From contig CAVQSK010000029.1 in NCBI GenBank assembly GCA_963715885.1, positions 18,401 through 82,400 of the forward strand: a DNA stretch of 64,000 nt, read 5' to 3'. A program made the position numbers and the translations under genes. Origin of the DNA: an uncultured Actinomycetota bacterium (lineage in GTDB: Bacteria > Actinomycetota > Actinomycetes > Mycobacteriales > Mycobacteriaceae). Under the pieces are notes generated by a model. It was not told where the DNA came from and did not search any database. It worked only from the letters and a program-made list of their open reading frames with translations. Below are positions 847-7,932 of the stretch, piece after piece; positions within the stretch are counted from its first letter, which is position 1, and each line of letters starts with the position of its first letter.

Positions 847-1587
847 GATCGTGTTCCTTTCTTGCTAACTGGGGACGGTGACGCCTGCAGCGCGACGAAC
901 GCGGGTGGTTCGTCGCCGTAGCGGGTGCGCAACAGGCCGCGACAGAAGTGGGCATTTCCGTCGATGGAGATGCGAGTCGAGCGGGCCTTCCGGAGCGCCA
1001 TCGGCACCGCGTCCGGTTCGTAGCTCTGGCCGAGATGGTCGACTAAGACGAGATCGTCGGACGCCGTGGATAATCCGAGTGCCTGGCGACGCGTCGTGAA
1101 GCGCCGTCGTCGCTTCGTCGTCGGGTAGGTCGCCGAGCGTCACGTCGCCGACCGATGCCTCGGTGCGGTCCGGATCGGCACGCAGCAATCCGGTGAGGCA
1201 GCGTTCCATCGCGGCGGTGTGCGCCTTGCGGCGGAACGTCTCACGCAGTTCGTCGAGACTCTCGTCGGCCTCGTGGCCGAAGGTGCCGCGGTAGCCGGCA
1301 TCGGCCGCCAGGCCCGTGTTGATGATCGCCGAGTCGTGGTGGTCGTCGAGTTCGACGACGACGCGCCGCGCCCAACCGAGCTTCATCAGAACGTCCTTGG
1401 CGTCCGAGGCCATCAGATAGGCGAAGTTCGGCGAACAGAACGAAGTCGGCAGCCGCAGGTGCACCTTCACGTTCCCCGCAGGGGTCACCGTCAGCGACCG
1501 CACGAACCCGAGGTCGGTGATCGGCTCGTCCAGCTCCGGGTCGACGACCGCGCCGAGCGCGTCGTAGGCCTCCTTGTACCTGCCCAT
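843..1587 (-). CDS. DUF59/metal-sulfur cluster assembly family protein, frameshifted near 1098
   Basis: LGAVVDPELDEPITDLGFV...LRLPTSFCSPNF. After a +1 shift the frame continues RRQALGLS...RISIDGNAHFCRGLLRTRY to a TGA overlapping the ADH start (ATGA). Confidence 0.8.
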
Positions 1588-1588
1588 C

Positions 1589-2626
1589 TCAGGCACCGAC
1601 CAGATTGTCGGCGCCCCGCGGCCCGACCGCGGGCTCGTCGGCGGACGGCAGTTGAAGTTCGGCCGGTACCCCGATGTCGTACATCTTCGCCGCGTTCAGG
1701 CCGAGGATTTTCTTCTTCTGCTCGGTGGTTATCGGCGCGTACTCGCTGAGTTCATCGGGAATCTGGAAGTCCACGAACGACTCGATCAGCCACCGCGGCG
1801 TCCACAGCGCGTAGTCGGAGGCGAACTGGATGCGGTCTTCGCCCACCCAGTAGAGGAGCTCGCCCATGATCTGCCCGAAGTACTTCGGCCGGGTATGGAT
1901 GAACGGCATCGCCACCGCGAGGCCGGCATGCACGTTGGGTTCCTGGGTCGCGATCCAGCAGAAGTCCTCCAGCCGTGGCAGGCCGCAGTGCTCGACGACG
2001 AAGTTCAGATCGGTGAAGTCCGACGCGACGTGGTCGACGTCGGCGACGTCGAACGCGTCGCGGTCCAGCGGCCGGATCGTCGGCCCTTTGTGCACGTGAA
2101 TGTTGCGGATGCCGAGTTCGCGGCACGCCTCGAAGTAGCGGTAGGCCCACGGGTCGTCGAGCCGCCAACCACGGGACTCGCCGTGCCACTCCGCGGTGTA
2201 GAGCTTGACCCCCTTGAGTCCGAACTTCTTGGCGTCCTCGCGGAGCTGGTAGAGGCCGGCCTCGCCGTTACGCGGATCGAAGTTGTGGTTGTACGTCAGC
2301 TTGTCCGGATGTTGGGAGGCGAGCCCGAACGCCTCGTCGGTCTGCCCGAACCCCTTGTAGTAGAACTCGCCGAGCGCGGCCGGCTGGAAGATGGCGTGGT
2401 CGACGTATCCGTCGTCGAACAGGTCCTTCATCAGCCGCTCGCCGCCCTGGTAGAGGTACTCCTCGTAGCTCCACACCTCTGATTCGGGGGATAGGTTGCG
2501 GTGATAGTCGTAGAAGCAGTCGATGAACTGCTTGCCGTGCACGTTGCGTTGATTCTCGGGCCGCGCGTCCCACAGAGCGATGTGGGCGTCGACGATGAAG
2601 TAGCTGGTGTCGTCCTTGCGGTACAT
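1589..2626 (-). CDS. Amidohydrolase family protein (type found in prm/mim monooxygenase clusters)
   Basis: IVDAHIALW, KGVKLY, IHVHKG, VEHCG, FASDY motifs. Confidence 0.9.
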   Translation of the reverse strand: MYRKDDTSYFIVDAHIALWDARPENQRNVHGKQFIDCFYDYHRNLSPESEVWSYEEYLYQGGERLMKDLFDDGYVDHAIFQPAALGEFYYKGFGQTDEAFGLASQHPDKLTYNHNFDPRNGEAGLYQLREDAKKFGLKGVKLYTAEWHGESRGWRLDDPWAYRYFEACRELGIRNIHVHKGPTIRPLDRDAFDVADVDHVASDFTDLNFVVEHCGLPRLEDFCWIATQEPNVHAGLAVAMPFIHTRPKYFGQIMGELLYWVGEDRIQFASDYALWTPRWLIESFVDFQIPDELSEYAPITTEQKKKILGLNAAKMYDIGVPAELQLPSADEPAVGPRGADNLVGA

Positions 2627-2651
2627 GGGGTGGGCTCCTCCCACGGTTGTG

Positions 2652-2667: not shown

Positions 2668-2716
2668 ACCTGGTGCCGAGCCTAGGAGCGTGAGCGCAGG
2701 CTGCCGAGGCCCCTCG

Positions 2717-2733
2717 TGTCTCAATCTGAGACG
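2717..2733. promoter_or_regulatory. Palindrome, candidate site for the adjacent Fis-HTH activator
   Basis: TGTCTCA-ATC-TGAGACG in the divergent intergenic region. Confidence 0.55.
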
Positions 2734-2774
2734 TCAGACCTACTGCTTGACAGGCCGCCGGATGCCAAGGTGCT

Positions 2775-2790
2775 TGTAACGTGGGTCACA
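2775..2790. promoter_or_regulatory. Second CRP-like site
   Basis: TGTAA-N6-TCACA just upstream of the activator RBS. Confidence 0.5.
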
Positions 2791-2802
2791 GTTAGGAGCA
2801 GC

Positions 2803-4299
2803 GTGTCAGCAGGAGTGCCCGACCGGATCGAGCTGCATGAAGTGCAGCGACGGATGGCCGGCGGCCCCGAGGGGCACCCGGTCCCTCGACGGTTGCTCGC
2901 GTCGTGGCAGCGCAGCGAGGACTACGGGGTGCCGCTCGACGCGGTCGAGCCCGCCTTCACCGGCACCGACGACCTGAGCTCACTGTTCTTTCAGTGCGGC
3001 AACGAAGTGCTCGCCGATTTGCACCGGACGTTGGCCGGCGAGCCCGTCAGCATGATGCTCACCGACGCCGAGGGCGTGGTCCTGTCCCGGTTGTCGGGCG
3101 ACCACAGCCTGTTGCAGGCACTCGATGACGTCCACCTCGCGCCGGGATTCGCCTACTCGGAGCGGGAGGTCGGAACCAACGGTCTGGGCCTCGCGCTCGC
3201 CGACAGGGTGCCGACGCTCGTGCGCGCCGACGAGCACTACTCGTTGAGCCTGTGCACGTTCACGTGCGCGGCGGTCCCCGTCCTCGATCCGTCATCGGGC
3301 AGGCTGGAAGGCAGCGTCAACCTGACCACCTGGTCGCGTTCGTCCAGCGAACTCCTTCTCGCGCTTGCCCGTTCAGCGGCGAGCAACACGACCGCCCTGA
3401 TGCTCGCCCGGTCCAGGGGCCGGCAGTCGCGGCCTACCCCGCGCGGCCAGGTGTTCCGTGTCGAAATACCTAGGCTCGAGCCAGGTTCGGGAACATTGCA
3501 CGCGCTGTCGGACGCGTGGAACGCAACCGTCAACCGCGCCGAGCGGGGTATGGCGAACGGCGGCATCGTCGCTGCGGTGGGCGAGGCCGGCTCGGGCCGG
3601 GCGACGGCGCTAGCGCAAGCTGCGCGCCACACCTACCCACGCGACCGCATCCTCTCGGCCAGTGCGCCCGCCCCGACCGACGTTCAGACGTGGCTTGGGC
3701 TGTGGGCGCCCGAACTCGGCAAGTCGCACACCGTTGTGATCGTCGGCGACGTCGATCTGTTGCCGACGTGGGTCGCCGAAAGACTCCGAGACCTCGTGTT
3801 GCACAGCAGCGCAAGCGCTTCGGTGCCGTTCGCCGTAACCGCCGAACGGTTCGAAGACATTCCGCTCGCGCTAGCGGGCCTCGTTGACACGGTGGTGCCG
3901 GTACCCCCGCTGCGGGACCGGAGCGACGACGTCCTCGCCCTGGCCAACCACGTCGCCACGCGAGTGCGTGGCCGCGAACTCGCCTTCACACCGTCCGCCT
4001 CACGGGCGCTGCGCAACTACGACTGGCCCGGCAACGTCGCCGAGCTGTCCCGCGTCGTCACGCATGCCGCCGGTCGCGCCGACGTCATAGACGTCGCGGA
4101 CCTGCCCCCGCAGGTCCTGGCGGGAACAACCCGCCACCTGTCGCGGATCGAGGCGTTCGAGCGTGGCGAAATCATCCGTGTGCTGGGCGCCGAAGGTTTG
4201 ACGATGGCCGACGCGGCGGTGGAACTCGGGATGAGCCGCGCCACGCTCTACCGCAAGATCGCGCAATACGACATTCACGTCGCGCGCGACAACTCGTGA
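2803..4299 (+). CDS. GAF + degenerate AAA + Fis-HTH transcriptional activator (MimR/AcoR-like)
   Basis: GAF (ERxVGTNGLGLAL...CAAVP), YDWPGNVAEL, C-terminal LGMSRATLYRKI. GTG at 2803 follows an AGGAG RBS. Confidence 0.85.
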   Translation: MSAGVPDRIELHEVQRRMAGGPEGHPVPRRLLASWQRSEDYGVPLDAVEPAFTGTDDLSSLFFQCGNEVLADLHRTLAGEPVSMMLTDAEGVVLSRLSGDHSLLQALDDVHLAPGFAYSEREVGTNGLGLALADRVPTLVRADEHYSLSLCTFTCAAVPVLDPSSGRLEGSVNLTTWSRSSSELLLALARSAASNTTALMLARSRGRQSRPTPRGQVFRVEIPRLEPGSGTLHALSDAWNATVNRAERGMANGGIVAAVGEAGSGRATALAQAARHTYPRDRILSASAPAPTDVQTWLGLWAPELGKSHTVVIVGDVDLLPTWVAERLRDLVLHSSASASVPFAVTAERFEDIPLALAGLVDTVVPVPPLRDRSDDVLALANHVATRVRGRELAFTPSASRALRNYDWPGNVAELSRVVTHAAGRADVIDVADLPPQVLAGTTRHLSRIEAFERGEIIRVLGAEGLTMADAAVELGMSRATLYRKIAQYDIHVARDNS

Positions 4300-4363
4300 A
4301 TCTCTGCGACGGGCGAGTCTCTGAATGATGCTGATTAGCTCGGTTCGGGCTGCCCGCAGTCTC

Positions 4364-4384
4364 TAGAATCGTGCAGGGGAGGGG
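4364..4384 (+). promoter_or_regulatory. Putative -10 box (TAGAAT) and RBS for hcp
   Basis: TAGAAT at 4364-4369, GGGGAGGGG at 4376-4384, ATG at 4390. Confidence 0.45.
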
Positions 4385-4389
4385 CGCCA

Positions 4390-4869
4390 ATGGCCACGGA
4401 CATCTTCGCGAAGATCGGTGACATCAAGGGCGAATCGGTTGATGCCAAGCACAAGGACGAGATCGAGGTGCTCTCGTTCTCCTGGGGTGTCACGAACTCC
4501 GGGTCGGCCGGATCGGGCAGCGGATCAGGCGCCGGCAGGGCGACATTCCAGGATCTGTCTATCGTTCACGGCATCGACAAGGCCACTCCTGCACTCCTCA
4601 AGGCGTGCGCGACCGGACTGCACATCAAAGACGCGACGATCACCCACCGCAAGGCGGGCAAAGGGCAGCAGGAGTACCTCATCATCAGGCTGAACGACGT
4701 GACGATCACCGCCGTCAGCCACGCGGGCGCCGAAGACCAGCCATACGCCGAGTCCGTCAGCCTGAAGTTCGCCAAGGTGGATCTCGAGTACAAGCCACAG
4801 CGGCTCGACGGAACGCTCGATGAGGGCTTGCACTTCAAGTTCGACCTGAAGGCCAACAAGGTCGGGTAG
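4390..4869 (+). CDS. hcp: Type VI secretion tube protein Hcp (Hcp1 family)
   Basis: 159 aa: IFAKIGDIKGES.D..H..EIEVLSFSWG, FQDLSIVHGIDKATPALL, EYLIIRLNDVTI, ESVSLKFAKVDLEY. Confidence 0.92.
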   Translation: MATDIFAKIGDIKGESVDAKHKDEIEVLSFSWGVTNSGSAGSGSGSGAGRATFQDLSIVHGIDKATPALLKACATGLHIKDATITHRKAGKGQQEYLIIRLNDVTITAVSHAGAEDQPYAESVSLKFAKVDLEYKPQRLDGTLDEGLHFKFDLKANKVG

Positions 4870-4871
4870 CG

Positions 4872-6191
4872 GTGGAACCGTCGGAGCCGCGGGAGCTGAC
4901 GGTCGGCGAGGCCATCGCGCTGGCGATCCAGCTGCAAAAGCAGCATCACCTGGCCGAGGCAGCACAGCTCTATGCCCGGGTGCTTGATGTGGCGCCACAC
5001 CATCCAGACGCTCTTCACTACACCGGCCTGCTGGCGCACCAACAGGGCCGAACCGATGAAGCGATCAGCCTCATCGGGCAGAGCCTCGCGCTCAGCCCGA
5101 ATCAGGCGGACTGGCATAGCAATCTCGGGATTGTTTTGCAATCCAACGGCCGACTCGAGGATGCGATTGCCGAGTACGAACGGGCCATTGAGATCGACCC
5201 CGGCCACGCTAACGCGCACAGCAATCTCGGCGTCCTGCTGCGCGCCGCTGGCAGGCCGGAAAAAGCCGAGGCTGCCTACCGAACGGCAATCCGCCTGTGT
5301 CCCGACCATGTGGATGCCTACACGAACCTCGGGATTTTGCTCAATGGCCTGAACCGCGCCAAGGAGGCCTCGGAGTGCTTCTGCAAAGCGATCACGTTGC
5401 GTCCCAAACACCCTGACGCCCGGCGGTTACTTGCATTGGCGCACTGCATGATCGGCGAAGTCGGCGAAGCCGTAAAGATCCTCGAGGAATGGCTGGAGGA
5501 GGATCCCGGTGATCCGATCGCAGAACACATGCTCGCCGCCTGCACCGGCCGCGACGTGCCGTCGCGTGCGTCAAATGCGTTCGTGGAGAAGACTTTCGAC
5601 GCCTTTGCCACCAGTTTCGAGGCCAAGCTCCAGAGCCTGTCATACCGGGCGCCGGACCTCGTTGCAGCCGCACTAGCCGACACCGGAGTCGGCGCCGATG
5701 GCCGGCTCGACATTCTCGACATCGGCTGCGGGACCGGACTGTGCGGGCCACTGCTTCGTCCGTTCGCGTCGCGACTTGTCGGCGTCGACCTGTCTGCCGG
5801 GATGCTCGCCCATGCCAGAGATAAGGACGTCTACACCGACCTACAGCAGTGCGAGGTAACCGAGTTTCTGCGCGCCAGGCGTGAGGCTTTCGACGTCATG
5901 GTGTCGGCCGATACCCTGGTGTACTTCGGTGACCTGCTCGAGTTCTGCGAAGCCGCCGCCAGCGCACTGCGACCCACCGGACTGCTCGTCTTCACGCTCG
6001 AACATGCTGTAGGAGAGGACAATATCGACTACCGGCTGGAACTACACGGTCGCTACAGCCACAGTCTCGCGTACGTGAAGCGAGTGCTCACCCAGTCAGG
6101 ACTTACCGCCGAAGCCAAATCCGCGGACCTTCGCAACGAGGCCGGCGCACCCGTCGAGGGTTTGGTGGTCCGGGCGACGAAGCCGGCCTGA
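4872..6191 (+). CDS. TPR-repeat protein with C-terminal SAM-dependent methyltransferase
   Basis: About 5-6 TPRs (HSNLG.LL repeats) followed by LDIGCGTG motif I; starts 2 bp after the hcp stop. Confidence 0.88.
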   Translation: MEPSEPRELTVGEAIALAIQLQKQHHLAEAAQLYARVLDVAPHHPDALHYTGLLAHQQGRTDEAISLIGQSLALSPNQADWHSNLGIVLQSNGRLEDAIAEYERAIEIDPGHANAHSNLGVLLRAAGRPEKAEAAYRTAIRLCPDHVDAYTNLGILLNGLNRAKEASECFCKAITLRPKHPDARRLLALAHCMIGEVGEAVKILEEWLEEDPGDPIAEHMLAACTGRDVPSRASNAFVEKTFDAFATSFEAKLQSLSYRAPDLVAAALADTGVGADGRLDILDIGCGTGLCGPLLRPFASRLVGVDLSAGMLAHARDKDVYTDLQQCEVTEFLRARREAFDVMVSADTLVYFGDLLEFCEAAASALRPTGLLVFTLEHAVGEDNIDYRLELHGRYSHSLAYVKRVLTQSGLTAEAKSADLRNEAGAPVEGLVVRATKPA

Positions 6192-6275
6192 GGCACACGC
6201 CAACGGGCGGTTCGAGTAGACGGGAAGGCATGGTTCCATTCGTCGCGCGGTGCACTTGAACTGGCCGGGACCGAC

Positions 6276-6884
6276 TTATCGTTCCGGTTGCGCACTGCAT
6301 AACTGTTCTGCGACGAAATCGGCTGTCAATTCGTGCCATCGGTGCCAATGCCGAATCAGGTAATGGCCTGCCCCCTGCAACGCAAGCCATTGGGCATCGC
6401 CGCCGCGCAACCGTGCACGCTCCGTTTGAGCGCGCGACGCATCAGCGTCGGTCCAGGTGTCGGCGGTTCCGTGCAGCACTCGCAGGCGACAGCCAACCGG
6501 GATCTGGTCGGAGTCGTTTCGCGGCCACCAAGGTGCAAGCGCCACCACTGCCCCCGCATCGTGGTTGGTACTCAAGTGCGCAGCCACCCGGGCACCCATC
6601 GAATGGCCGACGAGCACTATCTGTGTCGGGTCGAACTGGCGACGAAGAGCGGCCAGCGCAGACGCGGCGTCGACGACGGCATCGCGACCTCCTTCGTTCC
6701 ATCCGCGCATCCGGTAGCGCATCCTCTGCACTTGCACCGTTGGACCAAGGCGCCGCCGTAGTGACTGCGACAGAAACGCCATTCGTAAATTGGCGGCATG
6801 CCACGGGTGGGAGGGCTGCGTGCTGTACGGCTTGCCGCCGGGGAGGACCAGCACGGCACCTGCGGATGGCACATTCGTCGTCAC
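6276..6884 (-). CDS. Alpha/beta hydrolase
   Basis: GHSMG nucleophile elbow, HGTADTW, GAGH. Confidence 0.85.
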   Translation of the reverse strand: MTTNVPSAGAVLVLPGGKPYSTQPSHPWHAANLRMAFLSQSLRRRLGPTVQVQRMRYRMRGWNEGGRDAVVDAASALAALRRQFDPTQIVLVGHSMGARVAAHLSTNHDAGAVVALAPWWPRNDSDQIPVGCRLRVLHGTADTWTDADASRAQTERARLRGGDAQWLALQGAGHYLIRHWHRWHELTADFVAEQLCSAQPER

Positions 6885-7012
6885 GATAGATATTCGTAGT
6901 CAGGCCTTTCGCGGTTTGGGTCAACACCCTGCGGTGTATCCGCAGTGTCGTTTCGCGTCGTTTCGCGTTGTGAATCCTGACATTTGACCAGGTCAGCGCG
7001 ATCTCTGTGCCT

Positions 7013-7037
7013 GGTTCGATTCCCGGCAGCTCCACCA
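7013..7037 (+). other. Isolated copy of the tmRNA (ssrA) 3' end; att-site-like scar
   Basis: GGTTCGATTCCCGGCAGCTCCACCA matches my recollection of the mycobacterial tmRNA T-arm/acceptor end. Upstream DNA is not tmRNA-like. Confidence 0.65.
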
Positions 7038-7101
7038 GAGAGGGCCCAGGTGAGGGACAAAATCCCGAGCCTGGACGCCGCCTGAGCCACGAGCAGGAAG
7101 C

Positions 7102-7126
7102 GGCTTTCATCGCCCCGGCGAAAGCC
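7102..7126. terminator. Stem-loop, possible terminator
   Basis: GGCTTT..CGCC-CC-GGCG.AAAGCC inverted repeat. Confidence 0.35.
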
Positions 7127-7218
7127 CCGTCATATTGGGCATAACGAGGCTTCCTCGATGGCCTCGCGGAGTTGTCTTCGTGAGACGATCGTCGAGTGCC
7201 CAACGAGCTGAGCATCTG

Positions 7219-7932
7219 GTGACCGTGGTCCTCGCACTTCGTTGTGCCAACGGAGTCGTGATGGCGTCCGACTCGCAAATCACCGACGGGGCTAGGGGCC
7301 TGAGCTACCCTGCGCAGAAGCTGCACCCCCTCGGCTCCCACGCCGCGTGGGGCGGCAGCGGATCGCGCGCGGTGCTCTACGACGTCGAGCAGATCTTCAA
7401 TGCCGAGGCTGACGCCGTCGTCGAGGCGCCGGACATCGGGCACGCACTGCAGGACCGGTTGCTGCCGGTGTTCAAGCATCATTACGCGAACTTCATCCAG
7501 GACGTCCCAGGGCAGAAATCCGCTGGCACACCCGCCACCTACGTACTGGCCGCGGGCTACTCCGGCGATGTTCCCTTCATCGTGGATCTTGACCCAAACG
7601 GGTTGATCGGGCATTACGAGGAGATCGGCTTCCAGGCCGTCGGCAGCGGTGCACCGATGGCCCAGCAGGCGCACGCGCTGTTGGGGCATTTCCGGATGAC
7701 CGAGCGGGACGTCGAATATGGCGTGGTGGCGGCGTTACGCGTGCTCGATGCGCTTGACGCGACGTCGCCGAGCGTCGGCGCTCCCATGGACATTTGTCGC
7801 ATCAGCCCGGACGGGGCTCGGCACTTCAGCCCGGACGAGGTCGAGGGGGTTCGCAATCAGGTGAGTCGGTGGGTTGAGCTCGAAAACCGAACACTGGATC
7901 AGCTTTTCGATGCGAAGAAGCTCAGCATCTAG
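7219..7932 (+). CDS. Proteasome beta-like Ntn hydrolase
   Basis: GTG start gives (M)TVVLALRCANGVVMASDSQIT with N-terminal Thr; also AVGSG and SVG motifs. Confidence 0.75.
   Translation: MTVVLALRCANGVVMASDSQITDGARGLSYPAQKLHPLGSHAAWGGSGSRAVLYDVEQIFNAEADAVVEAPDIGHALQDRLLPVFKHHYANFIQDVPGQKSAGTPATYVLAAGYSGDVPFIVDLDPNGLIGHYEEIGFQAVGSGAPMAQQAHALLGHFRMTERDVEYGVVAALRVLDALDATSPSVGAPMDICRISPDGARHFSPDEVEGVRNQVSRWVELENRTLDQLFDAKKLSI

Follow-up and report, generated by a model that had tools for sequence, protein, structure and literature searches.

Hcp is usually given meaning only by its parts as tube, chaperone and secreted marker in a working type VI secretion system (T6SS), and the T6SS is viewed as a machine of diderm bacteria. 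In the H1-T6SS of Pseudomonas aeruginosa, the genes presumably run in the order tssB-tssC-hcp-tagJ-tssE-tssF-tssG-clpV-vgrG, matching that of the acidobacterial clusters described below, and we know of no methyltransferase with tetratricopeptide repeats (TPRs) encoded in the H1 cluster. The window analyzed here, a stretch of 64,000 nucleotides from an uncultured soil mycobacterium (G000:C29:18401-82400), carries an hcp gene whose stop codon is followed after 2 bp by the start of a gene for such a TPR-methyltransferase, and these two genes are the subject of the present analysis. The module is native to a mycobacterial chromosome and exists in this mycobacterium without a T6SS or other contractile machine. 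A near-canonical Hcp is kept under purifying selection in bacteria unable to build a T6SS, mycobacteria included, and almost always together with this one enzyme. The pair is best read as a self-contained module descended from a T6SS cluster, in which Hcp is the partner or substrate of the TPR-methyltransferase in a role independent of secretion, a reading that is held with somewhat more confidence than doubt.

The window protein resembles Hcp1/TssD of the H1-T6SS in its family, its fold as judged by sequence, its length class and an N-terminal GDIKGES...EI.VLS.SWG block. The locus departs from that system in the coupling of hcp to a TPR-methyltransferase gene, in its mycolate actinobacterial host and in a genome that holds no sheath, baseplate or spike gene among those searched. 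A second described arrangement, the auxiliary ('orphan') hcp islands of Gram-negative bacteria, is similar in that hcp lies away from the main cluster and the product of the neighboring gene is presumed to interact with the Hcp ring. Such islands, however, need a complete T6SS elsewhere in the genome and pair hcp with an effector and its immunity gene, whereas 43 of the 44 pair-bearing genomes tested are TssC-negative and the neighbor is a cytoplasmic-looking S-adenosylmethionine (SAM) methyltransferase with no immunity-like gene. The window locus is not an auxiliary hcp-effector island, given a genome without a T6SS, a TPR-SAM methyltransferase as the neighbor and no recurrent third gene.

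The closest described counterparts of the enzyme lie outside secretion altogether. Many of its homologues bear the JGI product name 'Predicted TPR repeat methyltransferase', which we take to be COG4976 and which denotes the same two-domain architecture; this group is uncharacterized, the only literature mention of the COG found being a genome description. The enzyme is also built like OGT and SPINDLY, with an N-terminal TPR superhelix preceding a C-terminal transferase domain, and these two proteins are the top Foldseek matches of its predicted structure as well as the closest matches of the TPR half by both sequence and fold. Its catalytic domain, in contrast, is a Rossmann-type class I SAM methyltransferase and not a GT-B glycosyltransferase, and the resemblance may indicate a possible mode of working rather than family membership. 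A literature search returned no description of an Hcp-TPR-methyltransferase pair, nor of a TPR-methyltransferase in T6SS clusters.

The mycobacterial locus and its proteins

The two genes and the two halves of the enzyme are laid out as follows.

4390..4869, plus strand: hcp (ATG at 4390, TAG at 4867-4869), encoding a 159-residue Hcp/TssD-family protein with the T6SS inner-tube fold
4872..6191, plus strand: gene for the TPR and class I SAM methyltransferase (GTG at 4872, TGA at 6189-6191), encoding 439 residues
4872..5546, plus strand: TPR half of the enzyme (residues ~11-225), matched by several Pfam TPR families; a 13-helix superhelix of ~6.5 TPR units
5577..6191, plus strand: class I (Rossmann) SAM methyltransferase domain (residues 236-439), matched by Methyltransf_11/25/12/23/31

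The initial annotation had described an intact Hcp1-family gene followed closely by an intact TPR and SAM methyltransferase gene, and the open reading frames and Pfam matches bear this out for both. The Hcp protein matches PF05638 (T6SS_HCP) from the first to the last of its 129 profile positions (E 1.3e-39), its 135.9 bits exceeding the cut-off of 23.5, and scores 72.6 bits against the TssD model of NCBIfam, TIGR03344, which has a curated cut-off of 58.9. Its closest solved structure is Hcp1 of P. aeruginosa (PA0085; PDB 1y12), aligned over residues 1-146 with an E value of 5e-41, and 15 further solved Hcp-family chains or Hcp fusions match it as well. Both the full-domain profile match and the likeness to a solved hexameric-ring Hcp place the protein in the Hcp/TssD family. 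It bears a Gly/Ser-rich loop, SGSAGSGSGSGAG, and is 63-68% identical to Hcp proteins encoded inside real T6SS clusters of Vicinamibacterales. An alignment of pair-type with T6SS-locus Hcp proteins revealed no column that is conserved at 85% or more in both sets with different residues; the mean identity between the two sets is 0.68, compared to 0.70 within the pair set, and some pair copies from sister lineages are 85-87% identical to T6SS-embedded copies. Since the sequence is indistinguishable from those of tube-forming copies, the window Hcp would still be expected to fold into hexameric rings.

Two further groups of Hcp-like proteins came to light. The same genome has another, distantly related Hcp-like gene on contig C3 (G000:C3:153148-153462; L002:1387-1842, minus strand), which encodes a protein of 151 residues that matches PF05638 with 54 bits and is 28% identical to the window Hcp. 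As read by eye from the translations, this gene is situated between genes for an RluA-like pseudouridine synthase and a short-chain dehydrogenase, with no methyltransferase beside it, and it belongs to a small family of 57 proteins, some members of which are named from Mycobacterium sp. The representative library also includes many proteins of 1,000-2,100 residues (P0246-P0261 and others) in which six Hcp domains follow one another in tandem, 30-42% identical to the window Hcp; these could be single-chain pseudo-hexameric Hcp rings.

The TPR-methyltransferase has been modeled with AlphaFold2 as a whole (mean predicted local distance difference test score, pLDDT, of 90; predicted template modeling score, pTM, of 0.78), giving helices over residues 11-225 followed by a Rossmann domain, and the methyltransferase domain modeled alone (pLDDT 89.4) displays alternating strands and helices. 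The Asn residues of the TPR consensus are found at positions 84, 118 and 152. Across 32 sequences, no variation is seen in the D283-x-G-x-G-x-G289 pattern of SAM motif I (here D283-I-G-C-G-T-G289) or in D306, the acidic residue that closes strand 2. The predicted Rossmann fold, motif I and the acidic residue together identify the domain as a putative class I SAM methyltransferase. Its best sequence match in the PDB is METTL27 (6e-8), and its Foldseek matches are generic class I methyltransferases with TM values of 0.6-0.76. An assignment of the substrate class from the fold was set aside, as the model matches generic class I enzymes only.

The source assembly, 38 contigs with a total of 6.97 Mb, has a completeness of 99.75% and a contamination of 4.1%. 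A profile search of the whole genome gave zero matches to TssC (PF05943), TssB (PF05591), TssF (PF05947), VgrG/Phage_GPD (PF05954) and PAAR (PF05488), and likewise zero to the phage-type sheath PF04984, the gp19 tube family not having been searched. When the nearest genuine T6SS cluster supplied 12 protein queries for tblastn, only Hcp (67%) and the methyltransferase (64%) were returned, along with housekeeping ClpB/ClpC-like matches to the ClpV query; TssB, TssC, TssE, TssF, TssG, TagJ, VgrG, DUF2169 and the PAAR toxin of that cluster gave no match in the genome. Neither search found the sheath, baseplate or spike genes of a functional T6SS, with TssK, TssM, TssL, TssJ and TssA outside the set searched, nor a sheath gene of an extracellular contractile injection system or phage tail, and the tube protein of the window is of the Hcp family. 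The earlier observation that no TssB/C, VgrG, PAAR, ClpV or baseplate genes occur in the 64 kb extends genome-wide for the families searched, the distant gene on C3 being the one extra Hcp-like gene found.

A chimeric or contaminated contig had been named at the outset as a finding that would undo the initial reading. The tetranucleotide composition of contig C29 correlates with that of the genome at r = 0.996, and the pair itself, with 63% GC and a tetranucleotide r of 0.90, falls inside the spread of random 1.8-kb pieces. Nucleotide matches of 73-79% to each of the two flanking genes, a GAF-AAA-lid-HTH regulator gene and a proteasome-type gene, occur in many same-genus genomes, and PPE genes are present in the genome. 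The genome-like composition, the genus-typical flanks and the PPE genes rule out contamination of the contig and establish the module as native to the mycobacterial chromosome.

Distribution and ancestry of the pair

Homologues of the window Hcp are numerous, with 5,946 in a metagenome protein collection, the top 120 of which are 74-100% identical. A scan of GTDB species genomes yielded 246 relatives; the best 80 are 63-92% identical and belong to Actinomycetota (Mycobacterium, Gaiellales and others), Acidobacteriota, Alpha- and Betaproteobacteria, Verrucomicrobiota and Methylomirabilota, together with one record labelled Chloroflexia and one cyanobacterium. Linkage was counted over 81 loci (L005-L085), most of the relatives being metagenome-assembled genomes (MAGs) with taxon labels taken from the record titles. 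Of these loci, 66 have an orthologous methyltransferase (53-96% identity) adjoining Hcp, five carry a solo Hcp gene and the other ten belong to T6SS clusters. Outside T6SS clusters, then, the enzyme is encoded next to Hcp in 66 of 71 loci and in several phyla, mostly downstream of it in the same orientation; three betaproteobacterial loci have the enzyme gene upstream, again on the same strand, and in two it is convergent. No third gene recurs beside the pair across the compared loci, biosynthetic genes included. The hcp gene had been called an orphan in the initial annotation; this holds in the sense that no machine accompanies it in this genome, but it understates a recurrent system found in at least five phyla.

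Closer to the window, the module is rare. It was found in none of 200 genomes of the family, and 400 Actinomycetota genomes gave a single weak match; within the genus, a nucleotide search returned matches in four of 80 genomes, one of which has the whole module. One Mycobacterium MAG (L019, 6001-6544) encodes an Hcp with 74% identity, but of the methyltransferase gene it keeps just the initial ~56 nt. The rest of that genome yielded no methyltransferase either, which suggests loss of the partner gene. At the other extreme, a TssC-negative member of the Vicinamibacterales (G775:C5:68005-69939) bears a divergent Hcp (38%) and TPR-methyltransferase (44%) separated by 352 bp, so the pair family extends well beyond the set with at least 63% identity. 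A protein of 568 residues joining Hcp, TPR and methyltransferase parts (P0159) was considered as a natural fusion; out-of-frame stretches at both ends of its Hcp part led it to be read as an assembly frameshift artefact, and it was left unused.

The ten non-pair loci, all from Acidobacteriota, are canonical T6SS clusters with TssB, TssC, Hcp, ImpE/TagJ, TssF and TssG. A full-length orthologue of the methyltransferase with 57-64% identity resides on the same contig in all five such cluster genomes tested, although split by frameshifts in one. The cluster of L101 has the order tssB-tssC-hcp-tagJ-tssE-tssF-tssG-clpV, then the TPR-methyltransferase, then vgrG and DUF2169 and, further on, a PAAR-like toxin and TsiV. 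In the T6SS clusters of Vicinamibacterales, hcp and the methyltransferase gene are therefore not adjacent, tagJ-tssE-tssF-tssG-clpV lying between them. An even sample of 121 Vicinamibacterales genomes served as a survey of the order. The methyltransferase is present in 12 of these genomes and TssC in 10; both are present in eight, and in seven of these tssC is followed 8.5-10 kb further downstream by the methyltransferase gene, in the same orientation. Two genomes have TssC without the methyltransferase, and four have the methyltransferase without TssC, each of the four with an Hcp gene 8-352 bp from it. By these counts and this proximity, the enzyme is located in the Vicinamibacterales sample either inside a T6SS cluster or beside Hcp. 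In the simplest history, the five genes that separate hcp from the methyltransferase gene in the cluster would have been lost, along with all else, to leave the pair.

Phylogenies of the two proteins agree with one another. In the unrooted Hcp tree (81 rows), the window copy belongs to a clade of 16 sequences exclusively from Actinomycetota (support 91/93), and this clade nests among pair copies of Acidobacteriota, Alphaproteobacteria and Verrucomicrobiota; the T6SS-locus copies are interleaved with pair copies beside a second actinobacterial clade. The methyltransferase tree (60 rows, also unrooted) displays the same deep split (99), places the window copy in an actinobacterial clade of 12 (100) and resolves Alpha- and Betaproteobacteria each as a single group. 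The match between the trees indicates that the two genes travelled together with few transfers between phyla. As the adjacent pair is widespread in at least five phyla and the mycobacterial copy nests among the pairs of other phyla, it was most likely acquired as a ready-made pair and not excised from a T6SS locus within a mycobacterium. The initial proposal of an intact two-gene module taken from a proteobacterial-type T6SS locus survives in regard to the T6SS origin and the intact unit, but the clusters found are acidobacterial, and the acquisition of a pair already formed fits better than removal from a locus where the genes stand apart.

Purifying selection acts on both genes within the mycobacterial clade that has no T6SS. 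The ratio of nonsynonymous to synonymous substitution rates (dN/dS; Nei-Gojobori), computed for 55 sequence pairs of each gene, has a median of 0.195 for Hcp (range 0.09-0.32) and of 0.181 for the methyltransferase (range 0.135-0.245). Neutral evolution of the pair, which would have counted against the initial reading, is contradicted by these values of ~0.2.

Possible roles of the pair

The pair probably has a job of its own, since it has been kept under selection in soil bacteria of several phyla that lack the machine. In the proposed scheme, the methyltransferase gene would have been an accessory gene within the ancestral T6SS cluster, and the pair would live on alone. Hcp would fold into a cytoplasmic hexameric ring, and the TPR superhelix, built like the substrate arm of OGT and SPINDLY, would dock either on Hcp itself or on a protein that the ring holds, and the C-terminal Rossmann domain would transfer a methyl group from SAM to the docked protein. 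In T6SS-bearing Acidobacteriota, this methylation might tune the tube protein, and in hosts without a T6SS the ring and its modifier might have been kept for a secretion-free function, such as a methylation-controlled ring chaperone or scaffold. Gene linkage is what points to Hcp as the partner or substrate of the methyltransferase. A broader proposal, for which the chances fall somewhat short of even, is that a cytoplasmic Hcp ring with a dedicated modifying TPR-methyltransferase represents an autonomous system across diderm, monoderm and mycolate soil bacteria, and that in Acidobacteriota this enzyme regulates the T6SS tube post-translationally, a role unrecognized until now. Were the tube protein indeed methylated by the cluster-encoded enzyme, a new layer of T6SS control would be added in that phylum. 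The pair raises the question of what role an Hcp ring plays in a cell without a T6SS, and it carries a caution for annotation, as a gene product called 'Type VI secretion system tube protein' in a genome of Actinomycetota is no sign of a T6SS.

Several observations weigh against a self-contained module of T6SS descent with Hcp as the partner or substrate. Most of the folds nearest to the methyltransferase domain belong to enzymes that methylate small molecules, lipids or RNA, with protein methyltransferases also among the neighbors, and so the case for a protein substrate is that made by the TPR arm and the gene linkage. No Hcp residue stands out as a likely methylation site in alignments of methyltransferase-linked and other Hcp1-family proteins. 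Six lysines (20, 22, 80, 91, 100 and 129) that are conserved in methyltransferase-linked Hcp proteins and absent from PA0085 were considered as sites and rejected as not diagnostic, because they are also frequent among 46 other Hcp1-family representatives. The five related loci that carry Hcp without a methyltransferase reveal that Hcp can persist alone. The one TssC-positive genome among the 44 tested, a low-quality 1.9-Mb MAG labelled Actinobacteria, has the pair (L043; G237:C68:2879-3781) as well as TssC on another contig, possibly through a binning error. The trees being unrooted, descent could run from cluster to pair or from pair to cluster.

The methyltransferase might instead act on a small molecule or lipid, with the Hcp ring binding or carrying the compound or the enzyme and serving as a partner rather than a substrate. 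The fold neighbors of the domain, mostly small-molecule or lipid enzymes (UbiG, toxoflavin, DhpI, NodS and PE N-methyltransferase), would suit such an activity, as would best sequence matches to METTL27 and uncharacterized methyltransferases. This explanation is nevertheless unlikely in view of a 6.5-unit TPR superhelix that resembles the protein-substrate arms of OGT and SPINDLY, of the lack of recurrent biosynthetic genes beside the pair, and of the position of the gene in T6SS clusters among structural genes, between clpV and vgrG. The pair might also be a relic, decaying or hitch-hiking, of a T6SS cluster that was once lost or transferred, and have no function in the mycobacterium. That both genes belong to T6SS clusters, that the module is rare (one other match among 400 Actinomycetota species and four among 80 in the genus) and that L019 retains Hcp with a mere fragment of the partner gene all accord with decay, but it would be hard to reconcile with open reading frames intact in most loci, with dN/dS values of 0.09-0.32 in the T6SS-less clade, with adjacency kept in several phyla and three gene orders, and with a promoter region conserved among actinobacterial copies; a relic is very unlikely on this evidence.

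It is highly improbable that Hcp is exported or assembled by an unrecognized machine, whether ESX/type VII or a contractile or non-contractile device, with the methyltransferase as a maturation factor. Hcp does retain every conserved position of tube-forming copies, and the mycobacterium has ESX-associated PPE genes; genome searches, however, turned up neither type of sheath nor any gene for a baseplate, spike or PAAR protein, inspection of the two translations by eye gave no sign of a signal peptide, no conserved third gene accompanies the pair, and the hosts span diderm, monoderm and mycolate envelopes. Still harder to credit is a selfish or conflict element, either an addiction-like pair in which the methyltransferase restrains a self-polymerizing Hcp, or a decoy for incoming T6SS effectors or a poison of phage tail-tube assembly. 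A compact unit with a candidate promoter of its own, found in unrelated contexts in every close relative and in soil hosts that live among T6SS-armed neighbors, would be in keeping with such an element. A match to a known defence system was sought with PADLOC, but Hcp gave none and the methyltransferase a weak generic one only (mad2, 6.8e-10, on the methyltransferase core, and TPR). Moreover, the aligned relatives showed neither a transposase or other mobility gene nor terminal repeats at the ends of the module, and the methyltransferase tree largely follows phyla, so that transfer between phyla would have been infrequent.

Upstream region, module borders and neighboring genes

A short region upstream of hcp travels with the two genes and includes the elements listed here.

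4317..4389, plus strand: upstream region travelling with the module, with a repeated CTGAAT/CTGATT motif (~4320-4340), TAGAAT and a ribosome-binding site
4364-4369, plus strand: -10-like TAGAAT, read in the sequence and kept in eight of nine aligned actinobacterial copies, that of L008 being one base short there
4376-4384, plus strand: purine-rich ribosome-binding site GGGGAGGGG, read in the sequence and kept in the alignment of nine actinobacterial copies

The good -10 box and ribosome-binding site noted at the outset are both present, but a strict sigma-70 scan upstream of hcp found no -35/-10 pair, which leaves TAGAAT as a -10-only candidate in a region that would plausibly function as a promoter.

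At the nucleotide level, homology with the closest relatives (84-94%) sets in at 4317-4346 and ends at 6186-6195, which is at the methyltransferase stop codon. The module so delimited is ~1.87 kb long and is comprised of the upstream region, hcp and the methyltransferase gene; its flanks match in none of the compared loci, and its genomic place differs in every relative examined. Reconstruction of an empty site was attempted and gave no clean insertion site, because the flanking genes are unlinked in relatives of the same genus. No tRNA or tmRNA was called in the window, and Rfam gave no match in 3800-7600.

Upstream of the module, the window carries a regulator gene (2716-4299, plus strand) with GAF, AAA-lid and Fis-type helix-turn-helix domains and no Pfam match to the sigma-54 activator ATPase core. 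An amidohydrolase-DUF59 operon (865-2644, minus strand) is divergent from it. The regulator does not accompany the Hcp module; in the same-genus genome G293, the module and the orthologue of the regulator are on separate contigs. Downstream, at 7135-7932 on the plus strand, is a stand-alone gene for a proteasome-subunit-like protein (PF00227, E 1.2e-10); at least 15 same-genus genomes have nucleotide matches of 73-79% to it. Between this gene and the module, at 6920-7075 with a core at 7011-7037, the sequence CTGGTTCGATTCCCGGCAGCTCCACCA resembles the 3' end of a tRNA, although it has neither a tRNA or tmRNA call nor an Rfam match. The ~150 nt around it are present in several copies in this genome and recur in many genomes of the same genus, and this region, ~0.8 kb downstream of the module, may be an integration-site remnant or a repeat element.

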